DNA of 64,000 nt from IMG/VR virus record IMGVR_UViG_3300018915_000002. The stretch is one strand, 5' to 3'. The notes under the pieces were generated by a model. The model did not search any database and was not told the DNA's origin. It saw only the letters and a list, made by a program, of their open reading frames with translations. Every line of letters starts with the position of its first letter. Within the stretch, counting starts at the first letter, position 1. Shown in pieces: positions 169-62,857 of the stretch. The DNA comes from a virus. A program made the translations under genes and the position numbers.

Positions 169-494
169 GATTTTGCTTGAAATATATTGAGAAATACTGT
201 ATTTATTGCAACAAAACACTAGATTGATAAAGCGATCGCACTATCAGATCGCGCCACGGAAGTCCGTGACGAAGAATCCATTCAAGAGGATGGATTTTTT
301 TGTTGTCTAATGAAGGGCAAAATAATAAAGATCTTATCCCCCTCATGAAATGGAACACGCCCCGGAATTCAAGCTGTTGGTCTCAATCGTTGGGAAAATG
401 GCGCAAGCACTAAGAATCTACGCCAAAGGCTGCGTCAATCCAGAACTTGCCGAAGAGACCTTAAAGGAATACGAAGCGACGATGAGACAACTGT

Positions 495-2525
495 GTGGTG
501 GTCGATGCTCAAATGGGCGAAGATAGGAAAAACTCTTTGTCGCCTCAAATGCTCGATCTTGGCACTCGCTATCAAATAGCTCTGCTCCAGTCTCAGTTGC
601 TGGAATGGAAACTGCTGCAAAGCCAAGGACTGATTGAGCGCAAAGAGGACTGGCGTGATGCTGAGGTAGTGAGGGATGCCACCGGGAGGTTCGCATCGAC
701 TGGGAGAACCCTGTCCAAAGTCGCGGATGATATTAAATCCGGTTTCTCTCCAGATCACCTCAAGGAAATTGAAAAATCAATCCATAACAGTCTCTCCAAC
801 GGCACCCTCGAAGTTCGCAACATCTTAGATAATGCCTTCGGAAATGGCGCTGCTGCATGGCGAAAGGAAGTTGCAGATAGCTTTGGGGATATGACCAAGG
901 GATTGCGAGGAGCTATCCTCAAAAACCCATTCCCTGTACTCACCAAGCAGGCAAATGAGGCGATCGCACGGTTGGAGCAGTACTCGAACAAAGCCATAGA
1001 CGCGGCAACCCAAAACGCCATATCAAAGGAGGTTGCCAGCCTATTTAATAGAGCCAATACCCAGTACGACAAGACAATTTACGACCTTGGGCATTTAGAA
1101 GGGAAGCCGAAGGTCGTGCAGCTATTAGGGAAAGCGGCAGCCGAACTAATTCCTCAGGCAATCTTTATAGGAGGCTTCTACTTCGGTGGACTGCTTGCCA
1201 ATTGGGCAATATTTGCTGCCCTCTTCCCGGCTGGGGTAGCCGTTGCAGGGGTAGGGACAGTAGGTGCTAGGATTCCCCCACTAACGCAGATTTCGAGGCA
1301 AGTTGCTCTTCTTACGGCAACGAGTGAAGTGGCAAAGCTCGATAGAGAAGCTAGGGGCATAGATGAGGAAGCTCTTAAAAATATGCCTTGGTGGAAGAGG
1401 GCTGGGGAGGAGACGAGATCTGTCTTCGTCTATCTTTTTGCCAGTGCAGGTATAGCAGTAGGGCTTGCAGCAATAGATGGCACCTTAATTCGATTCGGTA
1501 AAGATCTTGTTAAGGAGGCAGCGGCTAACGCACTTGCTCGTAAGAATATGCCTGCCGAAATCAAGGCAACCTTAGCGGAAGTTCGCAAAAGCCTCCCACG
1601 GAAGGAGAAGCTGGTTGAACAAAAGATAGCCCAGTTGGCGGAGCATTACAAAGACAGTAAGCCCATGCCTGCTCAGGTTGCGGCTCACGTTTACAAAAGG
1701 GCAGTTAAGTTTGAGCGAGACCTCCTCAATCGGTTTAAAGATGTGCCAGAACTCCCTGAGCTTGTGGAGGCGGCGAATATCAACATCCAACGGGCAATCC
1801 ACGAAGCGGAAATTCACGTCCGCGCACCTGACCCCGCTGTCCCTCAAATCCTCAACTCTCGCTTCAAGACAACGTTCGAGACCAATAGCCGTACCCTGAA
1901 AGGCTACATGCAAAAGCGTAGTCGGGTGGAAAAGAACTTCTTTGGCATCGACAAGGAGTGGCCACCTGAAGAGCGCCCCATTTATGGGTACTTCGCTCGA
2001 CCTGGAAATACAGCAAAACTAGAAGGGGCAAATACAGATGGATATGGTGCGATCGCACTCAAGCTCAAACCGAGTACCAAGCGTCGTGCGACATTCCTGG
2101 GACACGATTCATTCTGGGCAAATGATATGGGATCTATCGCCTCAACCCATGACGTGCCTACAGTTGGGACTTTTTTAAGTGGACAGGAAAGCAAGGCTGA
2201 GACAGTGCGAATAATTTCAGAACTAGCTAAGGCGAAGGATATTGAGGCGATTCGCCAGGTCGCCGGTACCGTTAAAATTCCGGGCAGTAGTATACTCGCC
2301 AAAGCCTCGTACCTGGAGGCTGTCGTGCATGGTGGCGTTGATGGCTCGGAAGTGGCAGAAGTGATTTTCCCTCATATTCCAAAGAACAGGGTGTTAGCCT
2401 TCGAGAAGCTAGCAAAGGTGAGAAAGGACTCAGGGCAAGATCTTGGGGACGAATACCTTAATGCAATAATTGATACAATCAATACGGCAAGAGAAAAGGG
2501 CATTCCCGTAATATTTGGGGGTTAA
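495..2525 (+). CDS. Putative phage effector: N-terminal RDxxGRF motif, central hydrophobic helices, C-terminal DUF3626-like (possible ADP-ribosyltransferase fold) domain
   Basis: VRDATGRFAS; ERPIYGY...GYGAIALKLK...RATFLGHDS...YLEAVVHGG resembles DUF3626 motifs. Confidence 0.55.
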   Translation: MVVDAQMGEDRKNSLSPQMLDLGTRYQIALLQSQLLEWKLLQSQGLIERKEDWRDAEVVRDATGRFASTGRTLSKVADDIKSGFSPDHLKEIEKSIHNSLSNGTLEVRNILDNAFGNGAAAWRKEVADSFGDMTKGLRGAILKNPFPVLTKQANEAIARLEQYSNKAIDAATQNAISKEVASLFNRANTQYDKTIYDLGHLEGKPKVVQLLGKAAAELIPQAIFIGGFYFGGLLANWAIFAALFPAGVAVAGVGTVGARIPPLTQISRQVALLTATSEVAKLDREARGIDEEALKNMPWWKRAGEETRSVFVYLFASAGIAVGLAAIDGTLIRFGKDLVKEAAANALARKNMPAEIKATLAEVRKSLPRKEKLVEQKIAQLAEHYKDSKPMPAQVAAHVYKRAVKFERDLLNRFKDVPELPELVEAANINIQRAIHEAEIHVRAPDPAVPQILNSRFKTTFETNSRTLKGYMQKRSRVEKNFFGIDKEWPPEERPIYGYFARPGNTAKLEGANTDGYGAIALKLKPSTKRRATFLGHDSFWANDMGSIASTHDVPTVGTFLSGQESKAETVRIISELAKAKDIEAIRQVAGTVKIPGSSILAKASYLEAVVHGGVDGSEVAEVIFPHIPKNRVLAFEKLAKVRKDSGQDLGDEYLNAIIDTINTAREKGIPVIFGG

Positions 2526-2526
2526 G

Positions 2527-2754
2527 ATGGAATTTCCAGGATACAAGCCGATTGAAGAAATTCAGATTGCAACCCGTAGTGATAAAGCTAACGTTATTGC
2601 GATCGCCTCATGCCAACTAGGATTGATTGTACGGGTTGAGAGCAATCCACCGTCCCAAGGAATGCTACTCGATAGCCTACTAAACCACACACCACCCGAT
2701 TCCTTAAGTTGGAATGAGGAGAACTGGGCGAAAGTGGAACACTTGAATGGATAG
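2527..2754 (+). CDS. Small hypothetical protein, candidate immunity partner of the upstream effector
   Basis: ATG 1 nt after the upstream stop codon; 75 aa. Confidence 0.5.
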   Translation: MEFPGYKPIEEIQIATRSDKANVIAIASCQLGLIVRVESNPPSQGMLLDSLLNHTPPDSLSWNEENWAKVEHLNG

Positions 2755-2785
2755 ATCACGGAGTTCCGTGGTTTCAATCTGCCCT

Positions 2786-2837
2786 GTCAACTGCCCCACC
2801 CACAAGGCGACGGGGTTTTCTCGGCGATTTTTATAAA
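2786..2837 (+). mobile_element. Minimal IS200/IS605 (IscB-type) end fusion or MITE remnant
   Basis: GTCAACTGCCCCACCCACAAG joined to GCGACGGGGTTTTCTCGGCGATTTTTATAA resembles left and right ends of IscB-carrying elements. Confidence 0.4.
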
Positions 2838-2839
2838 AC

Positions 2840-2874
2840 AAAAGTCCGCCACGGATCTCCGTGACGGACTTTTT
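2840..2874. terminator. Bidirectional terminator with the 14-bp palindrome as its apex
   Basis: AAAAGTCCG-c-CACGGATCTCCGTG-a-CGGACTTTTT between convergent genes. Confidence 0.7.
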
Positions 2875-2888
2875 AGTCATTGCTGAAA

Positions 2889-3371
2889 TTATTTACTCAG
2901 CCAGAAGCTGAGCAGGCAACCAAGCTGGTAGTAATAGCCATCTGGGGATTTTTCTAGACCCAGTTCTTTGGCTTTTTTCTCCTCAATCATGTAGTGGAAT
3001 GGGTGGTAGGAATAGGTGTTGTCATGGAGTTCTTTACTATATATGAATCCCCCTTCGATAAAACTTGAACGAGAACAAATCATGAAGCCTAATTGATAGG
3101 CGGCATTTAGATCTCTCGCTTGAATGAAGAGGGTTCTCTCCCCATCAAACTCCACCGTGTTCCACAAGGTGTAGTAGTCTCGCTGGATCAATACTTCCGC
3201 CATGAATTCTCCTGCATAAGAGGATTCACATATCGCCTTAATTGCCAGTAGAGAATCTTCTTTTTCTCGAAGAAACTCCGGCTTTTCTAGGTCATCGAAG
3301 AATCTGTGGCAGATTTCTTCGACACTTAAACTCTTGAAGAACTCGATCAGTACCTGCTGATTACTTTGCAT
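2889..3371 (-). CDS. Hypothetical protein
   Basis: 160-aa ORF with AAAGCAAAATCATG leader and TGTTACAAT extended -10. Confidence 0.7.
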   Translation of the reverse strand: MQSNQQVLIEFFKSLSVEEICHRFFDDLEKPEFLREKEDSLLAIKAICESSYAGEFMAEVLIQRDYYTLWNTVEFDGERTLFIQARDLNAAYQLGFMICSRSSFIEGGFIYSKELHDNTYSYHPFHYMIEEKKAKELGLEKSPDGYYYQLGCLLSFWLSK

Positions 3372-3474
3372 GATTTTGCTTTAAAAGACCATACACACAT
3401 TGTAACACTTGTGTAGTACAGGATTCTGTACTAAGGCATTAAACTAGAACAGCAACAAACCTCACTTATTAAGT

Positions 3475-3807
3475 ATGGATAGCAACAGTCTTGAAGAACA
3501 GATTAGAGAGCATCGAGACAAGGCATTAGCGGATCAAGAAGCTGACCACGAAAGGAGAATCGCCCAGATCCGAGCTGGACACGAACAGAGGATTGCTGAC
3601 TTTGAAGCCAGGATCGAGAAATACTTTAATTTAATGAAGGAGTTCCAATCCGCACTTGGTTTGTCGAGAGAAGACTGCAACAGACTAATGCAGGATAATG
3701 CACGTTTACAAGCCGAGTTACAGCAGTCTAAAGAGATGTACAACCAACTACTAAAAGTGGTTCAAAGTGCGATCTCGTCGCAAGAGTCTAATAAAAAAAC
3801 TTCGTGA
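3475..3807 (+). CDS. Coiled-coil hypothetical protein
   Basis: 110 aa, heptad-rich in E/Q/R. Confidence 0.65.
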   Translation: MDSNSLEEQIREHRDKALADQEADHERRIAQIRAGHEQRIADFEARIEKYFNLMKEFQSALGLSREDCNRLMQDNARLQAELQQSKEMYNQLLKVVQSAISSQESNKKTS

Positions 3808-3854
3808 TTTAACACACCACGAAGTTTCTTTATCAAAGAGTTATAGCAATTGTC

Positions 3855-5396
3855 TCAAGACGCAGTTGCCAGTAGTAGCTCACCATCTTTACTATCAAGC
3901 AAATGCCGCAATTTATCCAGCCCTGTCTCAGTAATCCGATAGGGCTTATTTTTTTTCTTAGCTTCGCTATCCGTATCTCTATACTCTAAGCAATTGTTCC
4001 GCAACAGATTGTCTACATTGCGGCTATAAGCCTCTTTCCACCGTGGGAATGGATTTTTCCCTTCTCCTATTAATTCCTTGTCCTCTTCGGTAAAGGAATA
4101 CCTGTTTTCTGCCTCCTCATATAGTTCTCGCCTCGTCATCGACTTAGTGCTAAACAAAGTGAGGACTTGTATTGTAAATTTCTCTGTATATTCACGAGAA
4201 ATAGCACTTTTTCTTTCCTCAACCGACGCAGGAAGTAGCGGGAGCGGGAGCGGGAAAGACTTGATATTACTTTGTGCTTTTTTCAAGGGAAGCGAGTCTA
4301 GTTTTCCTAAGATTTCTTGAGCTGCTTTTGTCCCATCTGGAGTTAGAGCATAGACAACCTCGCGCTGACTTTCAATATCAAAACTTTCCTCGCACTCCAC
4401 AAGTCCCTCTTTGATCAAGTAATCCAAGCATAAAGAATAACCTACTATCCAATTCCAGCAACTTACCAATTGTTTGCTTTCTTGTTCATCTCCATAAGTT
4501 AGTGTGGTTTTACTCCACAATTTCTCATCAAAATCAAACAATTCAATAGCCTTTCTGCTAATCGCAACTTCCTCCTGAGGAATCTTAGTTATCCATAGGA
4601 TATAGATAACTTGATTCCATACATTAATCCAGTATTCATCAGACTCTAATAAACCAGCTCGTTCTTTTTGAGCCTCGTTCTTTTTCAGTTCATTCCAAGT
4701 CGTCGATATCTTTAACGCGGAAGCAGCATCGCCCTGCTCAATTGCTTTCTGGAGTTCTCCTCGAAGCAACTCGTCAACCTTATCTAAACCGATACAATCG
4801 ATGACGGCATTACTGAAAAAATCACTCATGGTTTTCTTGCTTAACTTAATATTAGGTAAATATCCTTCGAGGCGAACTTGTGAGTTTTCAATGACTTCCC
4901 AAGCCCCATCCCCGAAAAACTGTTCGCACCAATGACGAACTGTGGCAGTGAGCGATCGCTCACCAAACCACCAGGTTACTGGAATTCCGGTATCCAGATA
5001 ATCACGCGATCGCTGCTCCAGTCCATCTTTTCCACGAATTAGAATCGGAGAAATCTGGCACTCATAGACAGCAACAATCTTCCCCTCTTGAATAGCCGAC
5101 ACGTCAGCAATCCGACACTTGTCCTGCAACCACTGCTCAGTCGTAATTTGAAGATCAGGAAACGTCTGAGTAAGACGGTGCAAGAGCAGCTTTTTCCCGA
5201 TCTCGTGTTCTAATGACTCTCGGCTAACAACTAATTTGGTATGGCAAACTGAATTCGGTTTGTGGCAGTAATGATCTACCCACCCAAACCTCTGGCGGAA
5301 ATATACAGGACTTAGGCAGTCAGGACACACCGCATCTGCTTCTCCAGTACCAGCGAAGATAGGGGATTTTGTTTGCGATGAAATGGCTTGTCGCAT
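3855..5396 (-). CDS. CoiA-like PD-(D/E)xK nuclease fused to C-terminal winged-helix (Mrr_N-like) domain(s)
   Basis: CPDC...HYCHK...C, ESLEH, RIADV...YECQISPI...LEQRSRDY...WWFG; C-terminal ELYEEAENRYSFTEEDKEL...PRWK...YRITETG. Start moved to ATG 5396. Confidence 0.7.
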   Translation of the reverse strand: MRQAISSQTKSPIFAGTGEADAVCPDCLSPVYFRQRFGWVDHYCHKPNSVCHTKLVVSRESLEHEIGKKLLLHRLTQTFPDLQITTEQWLQDKCRIADVSAIQEGKIVAVYECQISPILIRGKDGLEQRSRDYLDTGIPVTWWFGERSLTATVRHWCEQFFGDGAWEVIENSQVRLEGYLPNIKLSKKTMSDFFSNAVIDCIGLDKVDELLRGELQKAIEQGDAASALKISTTWNELKKNEAQKERAGLLESDEYWINVWNQVIYILWITKIPQEEVAISRKAIELFDFDEKLWSKTTLTYGDEQESKQLVSCWNWIVGYSLCLDYLIKEGLVECEESFDIESQREVVYALTPDGTKAAQEILGKLDSLPLKKAQSNIKSFPLPLPLLPASVEERKSAISREYTEKFTIQVLTLFSTKSMTRRELYEEAENRYSFTEEDKELIGEGKNPFPRWKEAYSRNVDNLLRNNCLEYRDTDSEAKKKNKPYRITETGLDKLRHLLDSKDGELLLATAS

Positions 5397-5459
5397 TGAA
5401 AAAATTTCAATCTCTAAAGCAATATTTGCACAAAATAGGCAGAAGGCCACATTTTTTGG

Positions 5460-7748
5460 TCACGGAGTTCCGTGGTTGACTGGAATCCCAGTGAAGGAGA
5501 CTCCTCCCATTCCTGGTTCCCGCAAGGCAATTAGCGCGGTAATATCAGCAAAGCTTGCTGCATGGAAATAGTGATCTGGCGCTCCAGGTGGTTCTATCCA
5601 GCCATCAGGTAGCCTGTCTGATGTGAGGAAGTGGTGCAAGAGATTTCCGTTATCTTTGGGGCTATAGGTTGTATGGGCAGGAAAATGCATCTTACGGCGA
5701 TAGACGCGATCGCGAACGGTGTCGAGTCCGTGTGTTCTATCGAGTAGGTACACAGGCACCAGATCTTCCTTTCCCTTCACCCGTGAGGAATTCTTGGTGC
5801 TTTTCACCTTCCTTAGAGTCCTACGCCACTGTTCTCCTTTGAGCTTTATCTGGTCGAACAGTAGTACCTGGAAGCGATGCCCAACCTTAACCTGACCTGG
5901 CTCCCAGAATTCATCTTCTAAGACAAACTCCACTTCTCCCGGTAGCTTCTCTTTGAAGAATTTATCTAAATCCCGGACATTCCAAGACTGGGTGGAGCGC
6001 GGGAAAATTGTGTATTCAGCGAGGTAGGCGTCAGTCGGGAGATCTCCCCTGCCGTGCTGTATGAACTTGGCAGTTGCCCAACCGTACCGTTCAAGGTATG
6101 GTTCAAAGATGGGGATGGCTTTGCGGTTGTTTACCTTAGCCAAGCAATATTGGGAATAGAGTGGGCGCTGACCCGGAAGATGCCCCAGAGCGAACTCGAC
6201 AGCGGTGTTGAACTCTGGCTCATTATCTAGCCCGATCGCATCAATCTTGAACTGCCGAGCTAGGCTTTCTAATTCATCAAAGTCTCCAATCTCTCGCCAA
6301 TCAAGTACCTCGGCATGACCGTCTGCCCAACTCAATTCCTTGTCTTGGTTATTGGCATAGTAAAATCCAATTGTGATCATCCAGTTGCTGTAGCGCCCTT
6401 GGTCAATACCAGCGACGACAATATCAGGTTTGCGTTCAAAGGGGACAGGTAAGCCCACACAGCCTTGGAGTTGAGATAAGGCAATCTTTCCTCCACCGAG
6501 ACTAATTGCCTTGCCGAGCATTTCTTGTATCCCCAATGCTGGCTTCTTAGTAGTCCACATGAACCGGATGCGTTCTACCGGATCAAATGTCCAGCTTGCG
6601 AGTTTTGGCAGGTGCATGGCGACTGTCTCGCGCACAGGTTCTTGATTCTCTAGTGCGTAGCGATTCAGTTCTACTAAAGTGATTCCTGTATTGGAGCAGA
6701 CAAACGCCCCTGCATCAAACGTCTCTTTCTCTAACTCAATTTCGCATTCTTGGCAGCCAACGTATGCCGTTGCGATCGCTTCATCCTTAGCATGGTCTTG
6801 TAGCTGCCAGTCATTTATCCCTGGAGGGTTATCTGAATAGTGGAACCACTTCAGTGGCCGCCCCATTCGATCCACATACCGTATTTCACTGATTCCATCC
6901 TCAGTTACCTCTACAGGCTTAAGGAAGTTGCCGAAAGCATCTAGGAATTGGACGCAGTTGCAGGTAGGGCAAACAATCTGCCACTGAAATATGTACTTTG
7001 CCTTGCGTACTTCGACATCAACCGTTCCACCTTCCATCGCTGGGGTGCTGCCTGCTCTCGTTGGCTTAGTGGGCCACCGAGACTGTCCGAATCGGGGGGC
7101 AAGCGCATCTAGGATTCCGGGCGCACATAATCCCCACTCGTCAACACAGGCAACACGGGTGGTGAATGAACGAATCTTGGAAGCCGATTGTTCATCATCC
7201 TTTGAGGATTGGACTTTTGCGGGAAAAAGCTCTAGGGGTACTCCTGCGATACTGATACTTTTCTTCGCATCAGAGTCCTGGCGCTTATAAACCCGCTGGC
7301 TCTCTCTTGAAAGCTCCTTGAGTGGCTCACACTTATCAAACGCCAACTGGATGCGATCTGTTGACATCTTCAACAGTTTGTCTTGGGATTCAAACCCAAG
7401 GGCAATAGGCGATCGCGCATAACCTAAGCAGAACGCGCACATAGCCACCAAGACCTCGGAAAACCCCAATTGTGCGGGTTTGCTGATTACGACCTTCTCC
7501 AGCCACAGGTTGCCAAATGTAAGGGCAAACTGATAGAAGAACGGTTCATCCCAACTGAGTTTATCCCCTGTATGGGTTAGGTAATGCTGATCCACCCACC
7601 AGATAAACAGCTCTCCACCCTTTGCGTACCACTCCTTGACGGCTGAATCACGCTGAAAGGCGGATTCCTCAATGAATTTATCACTCTCGCTTTTGTTGCT
7701 GCCCCGCGCATTCTCGGCGGATTTGATAACGGCACTGACCTTAAACAT
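5460..7748 (-). CDS. terL: Terminase large subunit, lambda gpA family
   Basis: KPAQLGFSE (Walker A-like), CVDEW (Walker B), GSTP, CPTC/CQEC Zn knuckles, AGIDQG nuclease motif, DHYFHA. Confidence 0.85.
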   Translation of the reverse strand: MFKVSAVIKSAENARGSNKSESDKFIEESAFQRDSAVKEWYAKGGELFIWWVDQHYLTHTGDKLSWDEPFFYQFALTFGNLWLEKVVISKPAQLGFSEVLVAMCAFCLGYARSPIALGFESQDKLLKMSTDRIQLAFDKCEPLKELSRESQRVYKRQDSDAKKSISIAGVPLELFPAKVQSSKDDEQSASKIRSFTTRVACVDEWGLCAPGILDALAPRFGQSRWPTKPTRAGSTPAMEGGTVDVEVRKAKYIFQWQIVCPTCNCVQFLDAFGNFLKPVEVTEDGISEIRYVDRMGRPLKWFHYSDNPPGINDWQLQDHAKDEAIATAYVGCQECEIELEKETFDAGAFVCSNTGITLVELNRYALENQEPVRETVAMHLPKLASWTFDPVERIRFMWTTKKPALGIQEMLGKAISLGGGKIALSQLQGCVGLPVPFERKPDIVVAGIDQGRYSNWMITIGFYYANNQDKELSWADGHAEVLDWREIGDFDELESLARQFKIDAIGLDNEPEFNTAVEFALGHLPGQRPLYSQYCLAKVNNRKAIPIFEPYLERYGWATAKFIQHGRGDLPTDAYLAEYTIFPRSTQSWNVRDLDKFFKEKLPGEVEFVLEDEFWEPGQVKVGHRFQVLLFDQIKLKGEQWRRTLRKVKSTKNSSRVKGKEDLVPVYLLDRTHGLDTVRDRVYRRKMHFPAHTTYSPKDNGNLLHHFLTSDRLPDGWIEPPGAPDHYFHAASFADITALIALREPGMGGVSFTGIPVNHGTP

Positions 7749-7942
7749 TAGTAGCCCATTTCCCGGCGTGATGGGGGTAACTCAAGCCACTTTTCCAGGT
7801 AGGCGATCGGGACGACATTCGGATCTAGGTTTCGCATCTCCCGACAGTACCAAGTCCACTGAAGGAAGAGTTTCTCGTCCCTCGCTCTAAGATGCTTCAG
7901 GCATTCCTGCATCTGTTCGTCCCAAGGCGGTTTATCTGGCAT
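7748..7942 (-). CDS. Hypothetical protein
   Basis: 64 aa; its stop overlaps the terL start. Confidence 0.55.
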   Translation of the reverse strand: MPDKPPWDEQMQECLKHLRARDEKLFLQWTWYCREMRNLDPNVVPIAYLEKWLELPPSRREMGY

Positions 7943-7995
7943 GGAAGTTTTAAAGTGGCGGCAATCCTATTCTGAGCCAGAATCTCAGCAAACGC

Positions 7996-8030
7996 AAAAA
8001 CCCCTAGACCTTTTTAGATCTAGGGGTTTT
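7996..8030. terminator. Rho-independent terminator
   Basis: AAAAACCCCTAGA...TCTAGGGGTTTT, adjacent to palindrome copy 8037. Confidence 0.7.
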
Positions 8031-8050
8031 GTTCGCCACGGAGTTCCGTG

Positions 8051-9043
8051 TTAGTCGGTTTCTACCTTGAACCCTTTGCCTTCAATTTCAGCAATAAGGG
8101 CTACAATTTCCTCAACTAATTGAGAATGCTCAGAAGATTTAGATATCCAGCCCCAGTACTCTGATAGGCTTTCATCTTGGGAGATGACCTCGTATTCCCC
8201 ACTGAGATACCCAATATGACCAACTACCTTAAGAGAGCCATAAGCGCCTTCGGAGTATATGACATGGGTTAACTGATGGAAATTGTATTCCTGAAGTAGG
8301 GCTTTCCGCTGTTCGTCCTCTTTCTTGTGTTCTGCGAGACATTCCCTTGTCACTTGGCGGGAGATTTCAATCAACTCCTGTTGACGCTCAAGGTATTCCT
8401 CGTAGGATGTAGGTTCATGTTCTGAGCCTTTTGGGAAGCGCTGACTCAACTGAGTCAGAATATTGCTTGCAAATTCAATATTCTCTTTCTGCTCCTTTTC
8501 GGTGTAAGGCGTTCCGATTCCGATACCGTTAGCAGGCGTTTTGAAGATGATAAAGATCATCTCTCGGATACCCGCTAGATAATCTCGATGAATATCATCT
8601 GGCACCTCTGCCATGCAAGCGTACTCACACAGGGGATAAATGCTCAGGCGATCGCCCTCTACTAGAGCAAGTAGGTCTGCATTCTCTCTGCGAAAACGCA
8701 TTTTGCTGTTATGCTCTCTTACCCTGCATAACCCTTCTGCTCGAATGGTTTGAGCCATCTCAGTATGCAAATCATTTTTGAATGACTTTTTCCATGCGGT
8801 TATTTCCTCTTCTTCAGAGCGAAATACTGAATCTGGATCGCGGACTGGATACCCTTCACCCAATTCTTCAATACCTTTAAGAACTCCTCCTTCCCACTCA
8901 TAGCCGTTACCATTCACGCAAAATAGTTGGTGCAGACAGTCTGCGCGATTTTTGAACAGGGAAGGATACTCCCAGATCATCTTTACGATGCGCTGGTAGA
9001 GAACGTTGGAGGCAATCGCGGGACTTACATCGTTGTTGTACAT
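8051..9043 (-). CDS. Hypothetical protein
   Basis: 330-aa ORF with AAAGCAAAACCATG leader. Confidence 0.75.
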   Translation of the reverse strand: MYNNDVSPAIASNVLYQRIVKMIWEYPSLFKNRADCLHQLFCVNGNGYEWEGGVLKGIEELGEGYPVRDPDSVFRSEEEEITAWKKSFKNDLHTEMAQTIRAEGLCRVREHNSKMRFRRENADLLALVEGDRLSIYPLCEYACMAEVPDDIHRDYLAGIREMIFIIFKTPANGIGIGTPYTEKEQKENIEFASNILTQLSQRFPKGSEHEPTSYEEYLERQQELIEISRQVTRECLAEHKKEDEQRKALLQEYNFHQLTHVIYSEGAYGSLKVVGHIGYLSGEYEVISQDESLSEYWGWISKSSEHSQLVEEIVALIAEIEGKGFKVETD

Positions 9044-9459
9044 GGTTTTGCTTTCTCCTTGTTATTTTTGGGGGTTAGAGGACACCAATCAGGAATGAGA
9101 TCCGGTAGATCGCATCTTGGTTGGGTCAAGAACTGCCACTCTTTGAACGAGCGATGTGTACACCAGTAAATAAAACAATGAGGGCAGTCCTTGCAAGATT
9201 CAAGTTGCTCTTTATCTACTTCATTGTCTCTTAATGCACAATCTAGGATTTTTTTAAACCCTTCGCCGCTTGAACAATCTGTAACGATTCCATCGAGAAC
9301 TACCTGCCTATCAATGAATCCGTGAATCAAGGTATGTTCTTGCAGGAAAAATCCATTCTTTAGCTTGAACAGCCTGAATTTACCATGACTTAGGTGGATG
9401 GGATAGAGAGGGATTTCCTTGCCTTCGACTTCCGAGAGTACTGAATAGATGAGTGCCAT
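9025..9459 (-). CDS. Hypothetical protein with C-terminal Cys-rich (Zn-binding-like) domain
   Basis: CKDCPHC...CTHRSFKEWQFL...IPDWCPL. Confidence 0.7.
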   Translation of the reverse strand: MALIYSVLSEVEGKEIPLYPIHLSHGKFRLFKLKNGFFLQEHTLIHGFIDRQVVLDGIVTDCSSGEGFKKILDCALRDNEVDKEQLESCKDCPHCFIYWCTHRSFKEWQFLTQPRCDLPDLIPDWCPLTPKNNKEKAKPCTTTM

Positions 9460-9463
9460 CTGC

Positions 9464-9724
9464 TCACTCCCGGATATCTTTGACTAACAATGCTGCTGCT
9501 AGCTGTTCATTTGCGACAGCAACAGGATTTCGGTTCCGCCTCTCAAAGTACGGACGCTCTGATCTCAACCTGTACTTTGGTCGTACAATTTCCAACCGAC
9601 AGAAACGCGGCACATGAATCCAAACAAATGGGGTTTTGCGGTAAATCAGCAAGTCAATCTCGCCGACTTCGCAAACCAACTCGTAACTTTGAAGCGCGAT
9701 CGCTTCACTTATTTGATTGCTCAT
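9464..9724 (-). CDS. Hypothetical protein
   Basis: AAAGCAAAATTATG leader and TGATAACAT extended -10. Confidence 0.65.
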   Translation of the reverse strand: MSNQISEAIALQSYELVCEVGEIDLLIYRKTPFVWIHVPRFCRLEIVRPKYRLRSERPYFERRNRNPVAVANEQLAAALLVKDIRE

Positions 9725-9859
9725 AATTTTGCTTTAATGTGTATCTATTACTATGTTATCACATCAATCGATTGCCTTATTGAAGTAGTGATCGCATCCA
9801 GCACAAAGCCCCCAGATCCAAAAAAGATCTAGGGGCTTACTTGCCACGGAGTTCCGTGC

Positions 9860-10273
9860 TTACTCAGCCGATGCTGAGGGTATTAGAGGACACCAATCAG
9901 GAATGCGATCGCCTCCTGGGTTGGGTAGGAACTGCCATTCTTTAAATGAGTCATGTGTACAGTAGGTACGATCAAAGTAACAAGGGCAATCCCCGCAACA
10001 CTCAATCGCTGTCGTGACAGTACGAACAGCCTGCTGCACCTGATCAACGTCAGTTGCTTCTTGACTCCGTAGATTAGGAGGAAGCTGAGGTTGTGGACAC
10101 CAAGCTTTACTTGAATCTATTACCCCACTACCTCGCTGGAAAAAGGCTTTCCCTGTACTGTCAAAAGCCACGCAGGGACAGAATCCGCCCCACTGCTCAG
10201 CAATGAATTTGGAATATCCTACTTTTACGGCTTCAATCACTTTATTGGTTCTACGGTCTATCAAATAAATCAA
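9860..10273 (-). CDS. Hypothetical protein with C-terminal Cys-rich domain paralogous to 9025..9459
   Basis: CGDCPC...CTHDSFKEWQFL...IPDWCPL. Confidence 0.7.
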   Translation of the reverse strand: MIYLIDRRTNKVIEAVKVGYSKFIAEQWGGFCPCVAFDSTGKAFFQRGSGVIDSSKAWCPQPQLPPNLRSQEATDVDQVQQAVRTVTTAIECCGDCPCYFDRTYCTHDSFKEWQFLPNPGGDRIPDWCPLIPSASAE

Positions 10274-10524: not shown

Positions 10525-10535
10525 GGTTTTTGCTT

Positions 10536-18084: not shown

Positions 18085-18161
18085 CACGGAGTTCCGTAGG
18101 AAAAAGCCTGGAGAAATCTGGGCTTTTTCTTGTTGAATATAAGTATTTTGTTGTATGACTA

Positions 18162-25038: not shown

Positions 25039-25987
25039 AGCCGAGATTAGATCGACTGCTACCCTTAAGGAAAAAGGGGTTGACTTTTGGGATCACCTAA
25101 AAGCGAGAAATTTAGAGTTTGCTACTCGGCTCTCTAGCTGCAACTCACGGTGGGCAGAACGAGCAGAGAAGTGCTGTGACAACCTCAAATTCAAGGAATG
25201 CATCAATGGATATTTGGTGTTCAAAAGTGCCTTCTTCTGTCGAGTCAGGGGATGCCCCTTATGTGAGTGGCGCAAATCGCGCAAGATAGCCAAGTTAATT
25301 GCTGCGGCTGTGAGCAGACACGGCGTTAAACGCAGTGATGAATGGCAGCAACTTACCCTTTGCATCGATCCTGTTCCAGTAGTGGCGCTAGAAAAAACGC
25401 TTGATGAATTTCGTGATGGGTTTGGTAGGCTCTCTCAGTTAAAAGCTTGGAGATTTAAGGGTGGATTTCAATTCCTTCAGTTTCAGTGGATAGGCGACGA
25501 AGTGAGAATATCTATCCACTTCTTGGGACTAACTTCACTCACCGGAGGTCGCAACTACGTCAGCAAGAAGAAATGGACGAACCTATGGAGGCAGAGCCTG
25601 CGTAGAGAATCTACTCCAATGGCAGAATTCCAGAGATTTGGGCAAATCCCCTTTAACTACGTTGCCCAGAAAAGCAAAATGCTCTCATGGCGATCGCTAA
25701 ACCTGGAATTATGTCCAGACAGTTGTTTTGCTGAAGCCGTTGATCAGATCCACAGGCGAAAGACCAATATAGGAATGGGCTGCTTCAGAAAAGCACTCAA
25801 TGAGGAGATCTGTATCCCACGACGCACAAACTACTACCCTTCTGAGGAAGCAAATCTGTGGGCAATGCGATCGCGCTACTTTGGCTATCTGCCCAATCCA
25901 GATAAGGATGACCATGATGATCAATACTTAGTGCTACCAGAGTACTGTTGGGATGAAGAATTAATTGCGGAACTCCGTGGCGAATAA
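25031..25987 (+). CDS. Degenerate Rep_1-family rolling-circle initiator-like protein
   Basis: FCRVRGCPLCEWRKSRK, QLTL, NYVSKKKWTNLWRQSL; the HUH position reads SIHFL. Confidence 0.65.
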   Translation: MLEAEIRSTATLKEKGVDFWDHLKARNLEFATRLSSCNSRWAERAEKCCDNLKFKECINGYLVFKSAFFCRVRGCPLCEWRKSRKIAKLIAAAVSRHGVKRSDEWQQLTLCIDPVPVVALEKTLDEFRDGFGRLSQLKAWRFKGGFQFLQFQWIGDEVRISIHFLGLTSLTGGRNYVSKKKWTNLWRQSLRRESTPMAEFQRFGQIPFNYVAQKSKMLSWRSLNLELCPDSCFAEAVDQIHRRKTNIGMGCFRKALNEEICIPRRTNYYPSEEANLWAMRSRYFGYLPNPDKDDHDDQYLVLPEYCWDEELIAELRGE

Positions 25988-29006: not shown

Positions 29007-29891
29007 GTGGTGAAGAAGAAAATGACCCCATTACACAGCTTGATTTGTCAGTTACAACTAATCGACCTCGAACTAAAGCAAGCCAACGAAGAGGAGGAGT
29101 TGCGGAGGAATGCTCCACCATCACAGCCTAGATACCATTGGATAGACTTGAATGGGTTCGATTTACGTGACCCAGCAACGCAATCGCAGCTTCTTGTCGA
29201 GCCAGCAATTCCTCCGAAATTCCCTTCGGATGAGCGTTTTGCCACATTGGTAAAGAGACTTTTGATTGATATTCGTGGGGCAAAAATTTACTTGCAACAC
29301 GATGCCTACCCGATGGCAAAAGCAAGGTCAGAGCGTTTGTCCAAACTAGAGGCAGCGCTTAAGCGACTAGAGGAGTTATCAGCAAACGTAGAAATTCCTG
29401 ACCCTCACTACATCAACCAGATGTTTCTTCCTGACAACGATCAGGAGTACTGCTGGGATTGTGGTGTTCAAATCATAGAGCGAACTCGGAGTGCGTTGAT
29501 TTACTCCTGCATGTTGCTTTCTCGCCAGTATCCAAGGCTTGCTCATCGATTCTGGAGGCTTTGCCAGCAAGGAGGCTGGTGGTGGAGTTTCTACTATTCG
29601 GATGTTCGCCCTTATCAATTCAACAGCGTCGATATTGAAAAAAGCAGGGTATGCAATTGCTGTTTCAAACTTCTCCACTACTCCCTCAGTTCCCTCGGTA
29701 TAGACGAGGAATCTGATATTTTCCTCGACTACGAACACGAGATGGATGAAGAGGGGTGGTGGCAGTTATGGGTGATTTTTAATGCGGCTCATGAACGCGG
29801 CTATCCCAACTACCTTGCAGATAAGTTGGAAAAACTCATTTCCAAGTATCAACTCGATAGCCCACGGACTTCCGTGTTGGAGGACGCATGA
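29007..29891 (+). CDS. Hypothetical protein with CxxC pairs
   Basis: 294 aa; CWDC, CNCC. Confidence 0.65.
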   Translation: MVKKKMTPLHSLICQLQLIDLELKQANEEEELRRNAPPSQPRYHWIDLNGFDLRDPATQSQLLVEPAIPPKFPSDERFATLVKRLLIDIRGAKIYLQHDAYPMAKARSERLSKLEAALKRLEELSANVEIPDPHYINQMFLPDNDQEYCWDCGVQIIERTRSALIYSCMLLSRQYPRLAHRFWRLCQQGGWWWSFYYSDVRPYQFNSVDIEKSRVCNCCFKLLHYSLSSLGIDEESDIFLDYEHEMDEEGWWQLWVIFNAAHERGYPNYLADKLEKLISKYQLDSPRTSVLEDA

Positions 29892-31051
29892 GAACCCAGT
29901 ATGTATTGGACTTATGCTCTGGTGGAGGTGGCTTTATCCTTGCAGAGGCGATTTGCGCCGAGAGGGGTGATAATAGCCCTCGATTTCAAACAGTGGCAGT
30001 GTGTGATAATAACAGAAGCTGCCAGGATGTGTTGAATTTGCGATTTCCCGGCATCCCCGTCATTCAAAACATAGTCGATGTTACAACTGAAACTCTTCAG
30101 CGATTGGGACTCCCCCCAATCGACGGAATCTGTGGAGGCTTCCCCTGCCAGCCCCACAGTGTCTCTGGCAAGAAAAAAGGTTCCCAAGACGACAGGGACT
30201 TATGGCCTGAATTTCGCAGAATCCTTTGCGATTTACGCCCAAAATGGGCGGTTCTTGAAAATGTACCAGGGCTATTTACAACAGACTCTGGACGGTTCCT
30301 ACGAGGAATTCTTGGAGATCTTGCCGAATTGGATTTTGATGCGGAGACGGGAATTGTTCCCTGCGCCTATATGGAATCAAGCGATCGCGAATTCATTGGA
30401 GTTGGAGGCGTTCATCTCCGGGAAAGAGCATGGATTATTGCCTACTCCAACAGCATCGGATGCATCGATGGCAGCGGTGTTCAACGAACGAACCCAGATT
30501 TACTTCACGAAGAATGGCACTCCCAGGAAAATCAGCAACCAGGGAGTCAATGGCTCGGTGGGTCTGAGCCGATTTATTCGGCTGATGACTGGGGAGGAGG
30601 GCAATCTCAATCCCTACCTCCCAGCCGTAATGATGGGTTACCCGCCAACTTGGGCGGATACCTCCTGCGACACGACAATCTTGAGGAATGGCTCTCCGCA
30701 GCCACAGTGCCCAGTTTCTCTAGGCAGATGCGTAGCTCGATTGAACTCACTCCAGAGGAAGTTAGAGCCTTACCACCGGAGGATCGAGAAGAGTATAAAA
30801 AACTCAAACGAGCCTTCGACGGAGTTTTTGATCGAGCAGCTAAAAGCCTTGAAGAAAAAAGCGCAAGCAAATATCGCAGCATCACGGAGGAATACTCCCT
30901 CCAATTCAAGGAATACCAGGAACTCAAAAAGGCAATGAATTGCCAATTGTCGATATTTGGGAATGCCATTGTCCCTCAAGTGGGCGCGATCGCATTCTCT
31001 GTTTTGAAAGATCGTTTAGCACGGATATCCGTGGCGGAGGAAGTATGTTGA
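29888..31051 (+). CDS. C5 DNA cytosine methyltransferase (alpha-type polypeptide)
   Basis: Motif I LDLCSGGGG, IV GGFPCQ, VI ENVPG, VIII RER, X FGNAIVP. Confidence 0.9.
   Translation: MRTQYVLDLCSGGGGFILAEAICAERGDNSPRFQTVAVCDNNRSCQDVLNLRFPGIPVIQNIVDVTTETLQRLGLPPIDGICGGFPCQPHSVSGKKKGSQDDRDLWPEFRRILCDLRPKWAVLENVPGLFTTDSGRFLRGILGDLAELDFDAETGIVPCAYMESSDREFIGVGGVHLRERAWIIAYSNSIGCIDGSGVQRTNPDLLHEEWHSQENQQPGSQWLGGSEPIYSADDWGGGQSQSLPPSRNDGLPANLGGYLLRHDNLEEWLSAATVPSFSRQMRSSIELTPEEVRALPPEDREEYKKLKRAFDGVFDRAAKSLEEKSASKYRSITEEYSLQFKEYQELKKAMNCQLSIFGNAIVPQVGAIAFSVLKDRLARISVAEEVC
30078..30938 (+). CDS. Nested alternative-frame methyltransferase beta-type polypeptide
   Basis: 286-aa ORF inside the methyltransferase gene with LLPTPTASD and LNPYLPAVMMGYPPTW motifs typical of phage C5 methyltransferase C-terminal parts. 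Confidence 0.7.
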   Translation: MLQLKLFSDWDSPQSTESVEASPASPTVSLARKKVPKTTGTYGLNFAESFAIYAQNGRFLKMYQGYLQQTLDGSYEEFLEILPNWILMRRRELFPAPIWNQAIANSLELEAFISGKEHGLLPTPTASDASMAAVFNERTQIYFTKNGTPRKISNQGVNGSVGLSRFIRLMTGEEGNLNPYLPAVMMGYPPTWADTSCDTTILRNGSPQPQCPVSLGRCVARLNSLQRKLEPYHRRIEKSIKNSNEPSTEFLIEQLKALKKKAQANIAASRRNTPSNSRNTRNSKRQ

Positions 31052-36421: not shown

Positions 36422-36540
36422 TAGAACTTCTAGTGGGCGGCTTTACTAATAAGACGCTCTATTTCTTCGTTTCAAGTATATTTATGACCGGAAGTGGCTT
36501 CCATTGCTATCGAGTTATGCTTTGTTGCGGAACTCCGTGG

Positions 36541-54572: not shown

Positions 54573-54634
54573 GCAATGCCGCCAATTTTGTCCCCACGGA
54601 ACTCCGTGTTTAGTTTTCTAAATAAAGCAAAATC

Positions 54635-54841
54635 ATGATCAAAAGCATAAACAAGAAACCAGAAGTCATTAAAGTTCATTTGGAATTAGAGTTTTCGCCT
54701 CATCTTTTTAGGGCAATCAGACTGTTCCTCACTATCCGAAATATCACCTTTGAGCAGTTAATTGCCTCCTGGTGCGATCGCCTCATCCCCGATGCTCCCG
54801 ATATCCCTGATGAGGTGTCGGAGGTCGAGCGATCGCGCTAG
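54635..54841 (+). CDS. Hypothetical small protein
   Basis: AAAGCAAAATCATG leader. Confidence 0.6.
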   Translation: MIKSINKKPEVIKVHLELEFSPHLFRAIRLFLTIRNITFEQLIASWCDRLIPDAPDIPDEVSEVERSR

Positions 54842-54916: not shown

Positions 54917-56020
54917 GTGGTGTGTGAGATTAGTCCAGCGATTTTAGTCATGGCATTAAAGATTGAATATGGCGACAAACCATTTGACGAGGGAGAGGAA
55001 GGAGTTCAGTCGGAACCCGAACCCGAACTCGAAAACTTAGAGGAAGAGGCAAGATCTGTGCAAGCTGAAGTCCTTTCACCAGAAGAGGAGATCAACTACC
55101 CACCAAATGAACCAAGTCGGTCATCAGAGGAAGAGGACAATACCTACGTCTTTGACACTAGGGTTGGCAAACTCGAACTCATTAACTACTTGCCACGAGT
55201 ACCTCGCGAGGTACTTGATGGAGAGCGCGATTTTACCGAAGAAGAGTGGGCGCTCGCCTCCGAAGATTACAACCGAGGCTTTCGACCAATCGAGAAGCGG
55301 TATCTCATCAAGTACCAGGTTCCCGATGATGCGTCCAGGTTCCGTACCCAGGAGGATCTAAGCCGCTACTGCATCAAAATGTCTCCGGGCATGATTGGCA
55401 GGTGGGTAAAAGCGACGACAAATGAGTCGGCTCAGAGGTTTCCGAGGCATCTACTCAAGGATGACTACGGGTTTACCCAGTATGCGGTAGCCGTCTACCG
55501 CAACTTAATGAATTACACCTGCACCAGGCGATTCAAGGCGGATGCCAACGGATTCATTGATTGGGAAAAGATTGATCGGGATGCCGAAGTCTCGCCCATT
55601 AAAGATCCGGAATTGAGCGAGGCTAATCCAAGTCACGCGCTTAATTCCAGTTACTGGGAAAAACTTCAAGAGCAGTGGGATGACTACTGCAACTTGATGG
55701 CTTGGATAGAGGAATACAAGCAGTTTCTTTCCCTCAGAAGCCAACAACCAGAAGTGATGGACTTTGATGGACAAGGCGATCGCGTCTTAGCTCAACAGAT
55801 GAGCCAGTTCGCTGCCAAGGTTGAACTCACTAAACAGGCAGCACTCCAATACCTTGATCAAGAACTGGATGATCTCAATAAAAAGGCGGTGACCAAGGCA
55901 AAGGTGAAGGCGGCAAAAGGCAGGGCGGATGCTCTAGATGCCTACGCTGAAACCTTTAATCAAAGAGATCCCCAGCCAGTCCCTGAGGAAGAAGATTTGT
56001 GGTCAGGCGAACAATCCTGA
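54917..56020 (+). CDS. Hypothetical acidic protein upstream of the actin-like ATPase
   Basis: 367 aa; start uncertain. Confidence 0.65.
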   Translation: MVCEISPAILVMALKIEYGDKPFDEGEEGVQSEPEPELENLEEEARSVQAEVLSPEEEINYPPNEPSRSSEEEDNTYVFDTRVGKLELINYLPRVPREVLDGERDFTEEEWALASEDYNRGFRPIEKRYLIKYQVPDDASRFRTQEDLSRYCIKMSPGMIGRWVKATTNESAQRFPRHLLKDDYGFTQYAVAVYRNLMNYTCTRRFKADANGFIDWEKIDRDAEVSPIKDPELSEANPSHALNSSYWEKLQEQWDDYCNLMAWIEEYKQFLSLRSQQPEVMDFDGQGDRVLAQQMSQFAAKVELTKQAALQYLDQELDDLNKKAVTKAKVKAAKGRADALDAYAETFNQRDPQPVPEEEDLWSGEQS

Positions 56021-56047
56021 CCGCGTACACCCTAGAAAAGGATAGAT

Positions 56048-57253
56048 ATGAGTACGTCCAAAGCAAAAGCATTACCGGCAGCCAATCTCGGTCTCGTTCA
56101 GTTTACTGACGAGAAAGACGACATTGATCCGGCTGATAGCGCGATGCAAATCAAGCTTAGTTCCAGTGATCCGGATCGCGCCATCATCAAACTCGCTCGA
56201 CCAGAGGCTCTTCCTGATGGGCACAACGTTTGCATGGATATGGGACGGCGATTCATCAAGATTGCCTACTGGAAAAATCCTTCAACCATTGTCATCGACA
56301 AAATGCCGACGGAACTCGCTGACGTGCCAGCGGAAAAAAACCTAGGGGTAGCCAAGAGTAAGTTCTTGGCTAGGAACCAAAAGAAGGTAGCGGCTAAGAA
56401 TCGAGTTAGTATCACCTATTTGGATAAGACCTACACTGCCGCTCTTCGCGCCCAGAAGCTAGGCGGAAAAAGAGGATTAGGGGAAAAGAAGACTAAAGAT
56501 CTCCTACCTCGTGTCCTTTGTGCCTTGACCCTGCACGAAATAAAGGAAGGGAAAGTTAACCTCATCCTCACTATTCCCTTTGAGGGGGCTAGTGATTGGG
56601 CTACCCAAGAAGCTATGGCGGCTGAGCTTGTGGATGGCCAACGAGTTTGGACTTCGGACTTGGGTCTACATGATGTCACCATTCGGTGTGCTGTTGTCCC
56701 TGAGAGCTTCTATGCCGAGAAGTTCCCTCGGCTTTCCGGTTCGGAATCTCCGGACTGGGAAGAAATTGACCACCACGTTTTTGACTTCGGATATCAAACC
56801 TTCCTGAAATCAACATTCGTGTTTGACCCAATCATGGAACGGTCTTCCTTTGACCCAGACCTTTCCGCTTGCTACGACGGCAAAGGCTTAAGCCTCTACT
56901 ATGAGTACGTCGCAGTGGCTTGTGGTTACGGCAAAGAGAATTCTGAAGACCCAGCTTTTATCGAAGCGGTTAACAGAGAAGACGAAAACTTTGTGTGCTC
57001 GAAAGGAACGCTGGTTCTCACACCGGCGATCGCAATAGCCTCTACTCGTTACCTCAACGAGATCGTCGCGCTTGCCAATCCTTCTCCTGGTATCGTTCAC
57101 TTCCAGATAGTAGGTGGTGGAGCATATAAGTTCGGTCAAGAATTCTGCAATCACTTTGAGTACGCAGAAACCTTTGTGACTGACTTACCTGACCTAGCCA
57201 ACATCATTGGTCAAGCGATTAGCTTGCCAACTGAAGAATTATTCAACGATTAA
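56048..57253 (+). CDS. ParM/StbA-like actin-fold ATPase
   Basis: Phosphate-1 CMDMGRRFIK, connect VVPES, phosphate-2 FDFGYQT, adenosine IVGGGA, ANIIG. Confidence 0.75.
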   Translation: MSTSKAKALPAANLGLVQFTDEKDDIDPADSAMQIKLSSSDPDRAIIKLARPEALPDGHNVCMDMGRRFIKIAYWKNPSTIVIDKMPTELADVPAEKNLGVAKSKFLARNQKKVAAKNRVSITYLDKTYTAALRAQKLGGKRGLGEKKTKDLLPRVLCALTLHEIKEGKVNLILTIPFEGASDWATQEAMAAELVDGQRVWTSDLGLHDVTIRCAVVPESFYAEKFPRLSGSESPDWEEIDHHVFDFGYQTFLKSTFVFDPIMERSSFDPDLSACYDGKGLSLYYEYVAVACGYGKENSEDPAFIEAVNREDENFVCSKGTLVLTPAIAIASTRYLNEIVALANPSPGIVHFQIVGGGAYKFGQEFCNHFEYAETFVTDLPDLANIIGQAISLPTEELFND

Positions 57254-61354: not shown

Positions 61355-61374
61355 AATCTTCTTCCTCCGTACCC

Positions 61375-62499
61375 CTACAGATCATCGTCTGTCGTTAGAT
61401 CAAAGCTCTGATACAGGAATTGTCTCGGTAAACGCGCCCAGTTAATCTGATAGGGAAATGTTTCCTGCCCACAGGCACAAGCAATCCCGTCGATGATCGT
61501 CACGGGACCGGGATTCAATCGCCCCGCTGCATTTCTAAGGGCACTAATGTCACGGGTGCTCATCCTCTTGTACAAGTCTGAGCAGAGTGGGCTGCCAGCC
61601 TTTCTGCCGTACATTTCCGATTCTGGAATCTCACTCACCATCGCGGTGATCATTTCGATATCCGGAACCTTATTCCCTGTTATGAATAACCCCAACTGGT
61701 AAAGCTTCAACGGCTCTACATAGAAATGCTTGATGACCGACTTCCCATCATTAATCTCGTGCTGAAGCGTGAACTTAAAGAGGGGTTTGTCCGTTAAGCC
61801 TGGAATAGACTTAATCTTAATGTCCTTCAACGTCTGGAAGGAGCGGCAGCGTTCTCGGCAATCAGGGGCAGGACACTCTCTCTCAACAGCAATCCGATTT
61901 TTATCAATTTGCTCCCCAGTTTCCTCGTCAATTCCTTGGTACTCACCGATCTGCAATCGTGCGGCAAACATGATCGTGGCAACGTCGCCAAGGAACATAT
62001 TGCTGATAAGCTGCGCCCCAGACGTGTACTTCGTTTTCTGGGAAACAAATTCCCGGAAGTCATACCCACCCAAGCTCTCGATCGCTCCCAAGTGGTAGCC
62101 GTCTTTGGTCTTCCCACCACCAAGAAACGCGCAAATCGTATCCACAGTTCGCTTCGGATTGTCGCCCTGTTTGGGGTCAAGATTGGCGAGGAATTCGTCA
62201 AAATCCCCTAGATGAATGTTGGGGCGAATTGTGAATTCAGTAATTCTCTGCTTGGGTTCACCCTCATCTTCCCCGTCAATAAACAATCCTATCGGTAGTT
62301 GAAGGGGTCTCTCCGCATAGTCTCCAATCGTTACAATATCGTACTTTACATCTTCGATTGGAATACTACGGGCTTCTATCTCTCGTGCGCGGTCACTCCC
62401 GTCATCAGATGGGGTGAGCGCTGGTGCTGCGAATCCACTTCTTGTCATGTCACCCTGTTTTTTCTGGGTTTTTACTCTACCCAGACTAGGGTTTTGCAA
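61375..62499 (-). CDS. Possible baseplate hub / tail assembly chaperone-like protein
   Basis: LPIGL, CPAPDC and CACG Zn knuckles, RMSTRDI..L motif reminiscent of tail chaperones. Confidence 0.4.
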   Translation of the reverse strand: MQNPSLGRVKTQKKQGDMTRSGFAAPALTPSDDGSDRAREIEARSIPIEDVKYDIVTIGDYAERPLQLPIGLFIDGEDEGEPKQRITEFTIRPNIHLGDFDEFLANLDPKQGDNPKRTVDTICAFLGGGKTKDGYHLGAIESLGGYDFREFVSQKTKYTSGAQLISNMFLGDVATIMFAARLQIGEYQGIDEETGEQIDKNRIAVERECPAPDCRERCRSFQTLKDIKIKSIPGLTDKPLFKFTLQHEINDGKSVIKHFYVEPLKLYQLGLFITGNKVPDIEMITAMVSEIPESEMYGRKAGSPLCSDLYKRMSTRDISALRNAAGRLNPGPVTIIDGIACACGQETFPYQINWARLPRQFLYQSFDLTTDDDL

Positions 62500-62545
62500 T
62501 CTAAAATTTTAAAATTAGGCACAACAAGTCAGGAACTCGCGCAAA

Positions 62546-62857
62546 ATGCAAGAATTGGCGATGATACGACGCGATCGCACGGGTTGGTCGAAGGAAAAGA
62601 TATTAGGAGACGAACTTCGTATAGCCAGAGAGTGCCTGGGACTATCGCAAGAGGAATTGGGGCAGAGGATTGAATTGTCTCGACAACAGGTGGGGCTTAT
62701 AGAGCAGGGGAAGCGAAAGCTGGAGTGGGATGAATTTGAGAATTGGGCTACGGCTGTGGGGCGGACAACTGACAGCTTTCGTAGGATTGTCCGACAAGAA
62801 TTAGAGAAAAAAAAGCTACCACGGAACTCCGTGATAGAGGAAATTAAGGGTTCTTAG
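62546..62857 (+). CDS. XRE-family HTH regulator
   Basis: LRIARECLGLSQEELGQRIELSRQQVGLIEQGKR. Confidence 0.85.
   Translation: MQELAMIRRDRTGWSKEKILGDELRIARECLGLSQEELGQRIELSRQQVGLIEQGKRKLEWDEFENWATAVGRTTDSFRRIVRQELEKKKLPRNSVIEEIKGS

Follow-up and report, generated by a model that had tools for sequence, protein, structure and literature searches.

We analysed a 64,000-nucleotide stretch (the window) of the virus record IMGVR_UViG_3300018915_000002, which is one end of a cyanobacterial jumbo phage genome of about 243 kb, and found an array of a dispersed palindrome, CACGGA-NN-TCCGTG, that is real, conserved among relatives and unexplained, and for which a precedent exists. All window counts fall within these 64 of 243 kb, located at one end of a 242,772-bp contig. 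We tentatively favour the reading that the palindrome is a binding site for a phage-encoded dimer, most likely the product of the open reading frame (ORF) at 31728-33140, with a structural role across the whole genome.

Palindrome array in the window

An initial annotation of the window had listed 28 exact and three near copies of the palindrome, and this number was borne out (Table 1), with none in 100 dinucleotide shuffles. The annotated density of about one copy per 2.1 kb likewise held (mean spacing 2,086 bp), and the copies are spaced more evenly than random positions (coefficient of variation (CV) 0.67, p=0.014) and than random stop codons (p=0.03). As first described, the centre is usually AC or GT (22/28 exact copies, 25/31 overall), the second base 3' of the motif is a pyrimidine in 28/28 copies, and the second base 5' of it is a purine in 23/28. 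A better parse has a 4-bp centre flanked by two 5-bp arms, with outer bases that extend the site to R-N-[14 bp]-N-Y.

Using a hand-curated gene set, we located 24 of the 31 sites within 45 nt of a stop codon (background 10.7%, p about 7e-18), in agreement with the roughly 25 of 31 within about 40 nt that had been claimed. Four copies lie deep in coding sequence, as had also been stated (nrdJ, the spike gene and two in ORF 31728-33140), and among the remaining 27 sites the 24 near stops compare with a background of 40% (p=2.5e-7). A site was present in 6/12 convergent and in 1/11 divergent gaps. Three genes, terL, terS and a histidine kinase gene, terminate by reading through a site to TGA. Copies are absent from all three insertion sequence (IS) genes, as annotated, but this absence carries no information, given how few sites lie deep in coding sequence in general (4 in about 48 kb).

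Within the genomes sampled, the palindrome is specific to the element and not a host repeat of the HIP1 kind, as the annotation had suspected. A search of 401 cyanobacterial genomes, a set that does not include the true host chromosome, returned 16 chance-level matches with a maximum of two per genome, similar to the reversed control; the host-chromosome abundance expected of a HIP1-like palindrome was not found in these genomes. Scanning viral contigs for the 14-mer gave single chance-level matches only, and a literature search found neither exact 14-mer in any of the papers listed. Some apparent contig joints touched sites within positions 1-20000 of the window. Their sides measure about 20 bases and a source contig spans the stretch unchanged, so we rejected them as repeat artefacts that are silent on rearrangement.

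Table 1. Positions of the palindrome sites and of the genes discussed in the text (window coordinates)
Feature	Position	Strand	Remark
Dispersed palindrome array, 28 exact 14-bp sites	255..62833	.	Pattern count
Exact site starts, part 1	255, 2757, 2850, 5461, 8037, 9845, 12432, 14044, 16828, 20699		
Exact site starts, part 2	23983, 25002, 28996, 29863, 31020, 32107, 32224, 33160, 35939, 41869		
Exact site starts, part 3	42868, 44363, 46597, 49045, 53678, 54595, 60628, 62820		
Near copy, one outer mismatch	18085..18098	.	Directly 3' of nrdJ stop
Near copy, outer CA to TG	25966..25979	.	In 3' end of Rep_1 gene
Near copy, outer CA to TG	36526..36539	.	After WYL/WCX gene
Terminase large subunit (terL)	5460..7748	-	Last four codons and stop read through a site
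terS	13429-14058		End read through a site
Histidine kinase	40810-41883		End read through a site
Variable slot: site, C5 DNA methylase, site	29863..31033	+	Between 290-aa gene and RNase HII
Candidate reader, 470 aa	31728..33140	+	Holds two sites; followed by a third
Weak partition-protein match (phrog_691, E 3e-4), putatively actin-like by motif	56048..57253	+	Context for plasmid-prophage state
XRE helix-turn-helix gene, rival reader	62546..62857	+	Site in 3' end, here and in Nostoc relative

Related lineages and the half-site rule

The element comes from biocrust metagenomes, one study possibly being the source. Its window contains 85 copies of HIP1, which points to a cyanobacterial host, and encodes terminase subunits, a baseplate spike, NrdJ, a sigma factor, replication proteins and a weak partition-protein match. 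A relative at 51% terminase identity is pC052_F, a circular 223-kb plasmid of Nostoc sp. C052 with tape-measure, portal and ParAB genes. Because this relative is a circular plasmid with phage genes, the window element is probably a phage-plasmid as well.

We found the general motif C[AC]C[AG]G-N4-C[CT]G[GT]G in 11, 8, 2, 2, 3 and 3 copies in the related sequences L207, L209, L127, L123, L218 and L217, respectively (expected 0.13-0.25), and the complete pC052_F carries 13 copies of YRCGGAATTCCGYR with an AATT centre. Five related lineages retain the site, with the half-site C[AC]C[AG]G (YRCGG in Nostoc) and a lineage-specific 4-bp centre. L207 and L211 share the motif of the window at about 5 per 10 kb, together with CACAG arm variants; L209 and L127 have CCCAG arms and a TATC centre alongside CACGG arms and hybrids; L123 and L218 have an AGAA centre in 5/5 copies seen; and L217 has hybrid sites. 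The core common to the lineages is CRG-N4-CYG. L130 contains a homologue of the candidate reader and one Nostoc-type site in 22 kb, and L215 and L216 are too short for motif assessment.

Orthologous positions are often kept, as the annotation had expected of a binding site: at the ends of the 290-aa gene and of the methylase, MazG and WYL genes, and at one spike codon. This spike site occupies the identical codon in the window and L209 though the amino acids differ; that is, the DNA is kept while the protein changes. Where the window has its near copy at 36526, a relative has its own site variant at the equivalent position. Sites in nrdJ, terL and the spike gene align in register, without indels, to site-free orthologues, and thus arose by substitution rather than insertion. 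Tape-measure genes also hold internal sites. The centre shows no strand preference (AC 11, GT 8 on the transcribed strand), and in four cases mixed half-sites mispair on both strands. The mixed half-sites, the absence of strand bias and the gain of sites in register within genes together favour a signal in duplex DNA, with two half-sites that would be read separately, over an RNA hairpin or an inserted element. The site is likely to be bound by a protein.

Two more distant elements, G002 and G003, carry an unrelated AT-rich dyad, A[AT]TAAA-GG-TTTA[AT]T, in 36 and 55 copies (L173-L184), at a density and with an even spacing similar to the window array (CV 0.63-0.64) and with six copies in one 18-kb gene. 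No such array was seen in G009. Another 245-kb phage from the same sample, L128, contains a perfect 22-bp palindrome with a parS-like core three times (881-902, 6734-6755 and 18624-18645).

Candidate reader and competing explanations

The annotation had named the product of ORF 31728-33140 among the candidate binding proteins. Structure prediction suggests a ParB/KorB-type fold, at moderate scores, and a dimer; binding and the suggested roles in partition, compaction or as a roadblock are hypothetical. The predicted protein comprises a KOW/SH3-like N-terminus, which rests on weak structural matches, an acidic linker in which both in-gene sites are encoded, a ParB/KorB-like helical domain (about aa 205-360) and a coiled coil (about aa 385-467). 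A ParB-N CTPase domain was not detected (no match to Pfam ParB_N). The conserved domain was modelled with a pLDDT of 86; an earlier fold with 12 sequences was poor (pLDDT 51). In a wide structural search the top match was Raf1 (Z 6.4), followed by the KorB DNA-binding domain with Z 6.0 (rmsd 3.1, 95 aligned) and 5.4, and further matches included VirB (4.9), SopB (4.3), P1 ParB (4.2), ParB-parS (4.0) and the Spo0J DNA-binding domain. An Atlas comparison gave TM values of 0.57 for DUF222 and 0.47 for HTH_ParB, with a ParB-type range of 0.43-0.47. Foldseek returned nothing significant for the domain in PDB or viral libraries, and a profile comparison with the Nostoc ParB was negative. The fold alone shows no function. 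Residues 200-470 are predicted to form a homodimer through the helical domain and the coiled coil (score 0.67, best control 0.00). The dimer runs had at least 82% contact agreement and a pLDDT of at least 80. The mark for a homodimer was reached by 20/30 solved homodimers and 1/23 single chains, and a long coiled coil may pass it by likeness.

Homologues of the candidate were found in all six motif-bearing lineages, L127 and L123 being tied to theirs by common sample and motif and not by a common contig, and none was found in the more distant, motif-free records (G001-G005/G009). Two contigs chosen via homologues, L217 and L218, subsequently showed the motif. On these grounds the product of 31728-33140 may be the reader of the site, an assignment that we make with reserve.

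If so, each subunit of the dimer would read one C[AC]C[AG]G half-site, and affinity would be adjusted by the centre and the outer R/Y bases, which would change in concert across a lineage. The reader would use a ParB/KorB-type DNA-binding domain without a CTP clamp and would therefore not be expected to load at a handful of sites and slide from there. Instead, sites would be scattered over the genome at intervals of 2-5 kb, placed after stop codons and clear of promoters. Sites parked in this way would lie where binding harms least, the dimer would coat the genome, and the missing clamp might be offset by the many sites. Such a protein would likely work on the 243-kb genome as a whole, organising, segregating or dampening it, probably while the element is in a plasmid-prophage state. 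The most far-reaching version, a phage-plasmid organising system in which a clamp-free ParB-family domain is combined with a lattice of ~100 sites, and in which the joint drift of site and reader lets each lineage mark its own genome, we regard as unlikely.

Several observations weigh against the assignment of 31728-33140. The structural scores are moderate, all under Z 8, and Raf1 and DUF222 rank above KorB and HTH_ParB. PDB sequence, Pfam and PHROGs searches with the domain gave no match, and no sequence-level link to ParB was found. The co-occurrence of homologue and motif is not independent of ancestry since the lineages are kin, and shared ancestry could explain it; the XRE gene discussed below co-occurs with the motif equally well where this can be checked. 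The same helical domain is fused to a nuclease on two ordinary plasmids that have no motif in 50 kb each, and several predicted helix-turn-helix residues differ between almost identical phages that share the motif (P0032 vs P0039). The in-gene site is missing from the L218 and Nostoc versions of the gene and so argues only weakly for autoregulation. A normal ParAB pair, with WP_179070812.1 as its ParB, is present on the Nostoc element as well, and G002 and G003 have an analogous array in which no homologue of the candidate was found.

The genes for the fused domain (L213:25215-26177 and L214:700-1755), in which its partner is an endonuclease-like domain, are divergent from a helix-turn-helix gene and located on ordinary cyanobacterial plasmids. 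The predicted helix-turn-helix of the candidate occurs as two alleles, six or seven residues apart (P0032/P0034 vs P0039/P0031, in L207 and L211), in phages that are 98.8% identical in DNA. DUF3102 was not found in five distant records.

Another reader of the same DNA site, either the XRE protein or the product of a gene outside the window, is possible though rather improbable; it would act as a symmetric repressor or as a roadblock to transcription, silencing the prophage from sites at gene ends. Palindromes of 14-18 bp whose centre is not contacted are typical targets of XRE dimers, as in phages 434 and P22. The gene belongs to a small family with 67-79% conservation and carries a site at its 3' end in both the window and Nostoc, where the protein is WP_179070909.1, 14/31 sites lie within 40 nt of a predicted terminator (versus 21% background), and 180 kb of the genome lies outside the window. 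However, the divergent gap upstream of the XRE gene has no site, in keeping with the scarcity of sites in divergent gaps, and the sites lack the orientation to transcription that stoperators need (PMC9283540). Copies within the nrdJ, spike and tape-measure genes are more in line with coverage than with regulation.

Less probable than a different reader is that the sites are recombination boundaries for gene-cassette swaps, for which the uniform centre within a lineage would supply matching crossover cores. The slot between the 290-aa gene and RNase HII holds a methylase in the window and L207, four or five genes between two sites in L218, and no gene but a single site in L209, and DNA homology breaks at the site there. 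The Rep_1 gene likewise lies between two sites, the centre is asymmetric and uniform per lineage (all five alike in L123/L218), and the repeats of Cluster O mycobacteriophages show similar indels (PMC4351075). Like phage boundary sequences for module exchange (summarised in PMC3233612), the sites are short conserved sequences at junctions of broken synteny, but their dyad symmetry and deep coding copies would be unexpected of simple homology linkers. Against recombination, this slot is the one clear case in which sites delimit gained or lost genes; many breaks in synteny occur where there is no site, sites also stand at some conserved junctions, and in tight junctions any breakpoint lands near a site. 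The neighbouring sites around the methylase differ in centre, and the origin of deep coding sites by substitution also speaks against such swaps. Neither the complete Nostoc element nor G002/G003 yielded a tyrosine recombinase, and we found no cognate recombinase for an integron attC or cassette site in the window or the complete Nostoc relative. We regard recombination at the sites as a possible by-product, as it may be in Cluster O.

An RNA-level signal, in which a small hairpin (5-bp stem, four-base loop) at the 3' ends of mRNAs would serve as terminator tip, processing site or protein-bound element, is very improbable. It would fit the 24 sites near stops, the often symmetric arm changes between lineages and the two or three copies at terminator apexes. 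The annotated apexes at 2850 and 44363 were confirmed and 62820 is a weak further one, but the pattern does not extend beyond these; a stable stem with a U tract, or a longer REP stem, was not found at most copies. The hairpin alone is weak (-5.9 kcal/mol; mixed variants -1.2 to -2.7), the base just outside the arms is complementary in only 3/31 copies, which is below chance (p=0.0015), and both loop orientations are transcribed equally. Rfam gave no match at the sites.

The least credible explanation is a second HIP1-like word that has no reader of its own and was produced by methylation and repair in the host or the phage: HIP1 is abundant, the sites arise by substitution and a C5 methylase gene sits between two of them, but the 401 genomes show no enrichment, L209 retains the motif though the methylase is absent at that locus, and the strong 3'-end placement and the 10-12 fixed bases are unlike a methylase target.

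Known arrays, neighbouring genes and significance

The initial annotation did not recognise the palindrome, but this kind of feature has a precedent. Its closest described counterpart is the repeat of Cluster O mycobacteriophages, in which more than 30 dispersed 17-bp dyad repeats, without an assigned reader or function, were described in 2015 by Cresawn et al. (PMC4351075). There too, copies are dispersed, with invariant arms and a preferred asymmetric centre without transcription orientation, some copies lie in genes, positions are conserved, and indels occasionally occur between two copies. The window array has the properties of this class: tens of dyad copies (31 in 64 kb), rarity in the sampled cyanobacterial genomes and an unoriented asymmetric centre. 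It differs in arms, spacer sequence and host phylum, and is 3'-end biased whereas Cluster O repeats are intergenic and 5' biased. Further differences are the even spacing, the lineage-wide turnover of centre and arms, and an element that is probably a temperate phage-plasmid and has a candidate reader.

The comparison with matS, SBS, NBS, parS and stoperators made in the annotation holds insofar as the palindrome behaves as a duplex-DNA dimer site; its stoperator part fails on orientation. Cluster A stoperators also number more than 20 across a temperate phage genome and lie in short intergenic spaces, but each is an asymmetric site that follows the direction of transcription and binds a monomer (PMC9283540), whereas the window site is an unoriented dyad. 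KorB/OB of plasmid RK2 (PMC11790492), ParB/parS and Noc/NBS use a palindrome of similar length, and the DNA-binding domain of those dimers resembles the predicted fold of the candidate. However, KorB, ParB and Noc are CTP clamps and no ParB-N domain was detected in the candidate; OB acts on promoters, whereas the window sites avoid promoter gaps and are denser. By hypothesis the array would work like KorB/OB or Noc/NBS, but it falls outside that group because the candidate has no CTPase domain. With HIP1 (PMC4390886, PMC5861425) the site shares an iterated palindrome, occurrence also in coding sequence and non-random spacing; HIP1 is an 8-bp, host-wide and methylase-linked word, in contrast to an element-specific site of 14-18 bp.

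Several further features were observed on the window element and its relatives. The weak partition match follows an acidic ORF of 357-367 aa (54950-57253), and the two are a possible ParMR-type pair; no iteron array was seen upstream. The jumbo phage carries a rolling-circle Rep_1 gene (25002-25987) with a site at each side, which in L123 occupies another location without sites. The histidine kinase has an ethylene-receptor-like N-terminal domain, and the spike gene contains short tandem repeats with an 11-bp period (46144-46462). An Rfam tRNA match of 126 nt (22184-22309, 49.4 bits), missed by ARAGORN and just upstream of a Ro60/TROVE gene (22365-23975), is possibly a Y-RNA-like tRNA mimic. 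The Nostoc phage-plasmid has orphan cas5d (L201:38696-39394) and Csx3 (L202:17272-17586) genes.

A leader repeat, AAAGCAAAA(T/C)CATG, stands directly before start codons at 161-181, 3364-3384, 9035-9056, 9717-9737, 48358-48379 and 54624-54638, and G005 and the Nostoc element carry their own start-linked words. An oriented 12-mer of G005 and the AAAGCAAAATCATG repeat of the window were considered as analogues of the array and rejected as leaders, since both precede start codons.

New in this analysis are the half-site rule for the family and a structural case for a reader. With this rule, natural variants in six lineages, a specific candidate and a relative plasmid in cultured Nostoc sp. C052, binding and function become directly testable. 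If the most far-reaching version described above is true, the Cluster O-type dyad arrays that occur in many phages would have their first assigned reader. Should the candidate prove correct, it would show how ParB-type domains can cover a large replicon without a clamp.

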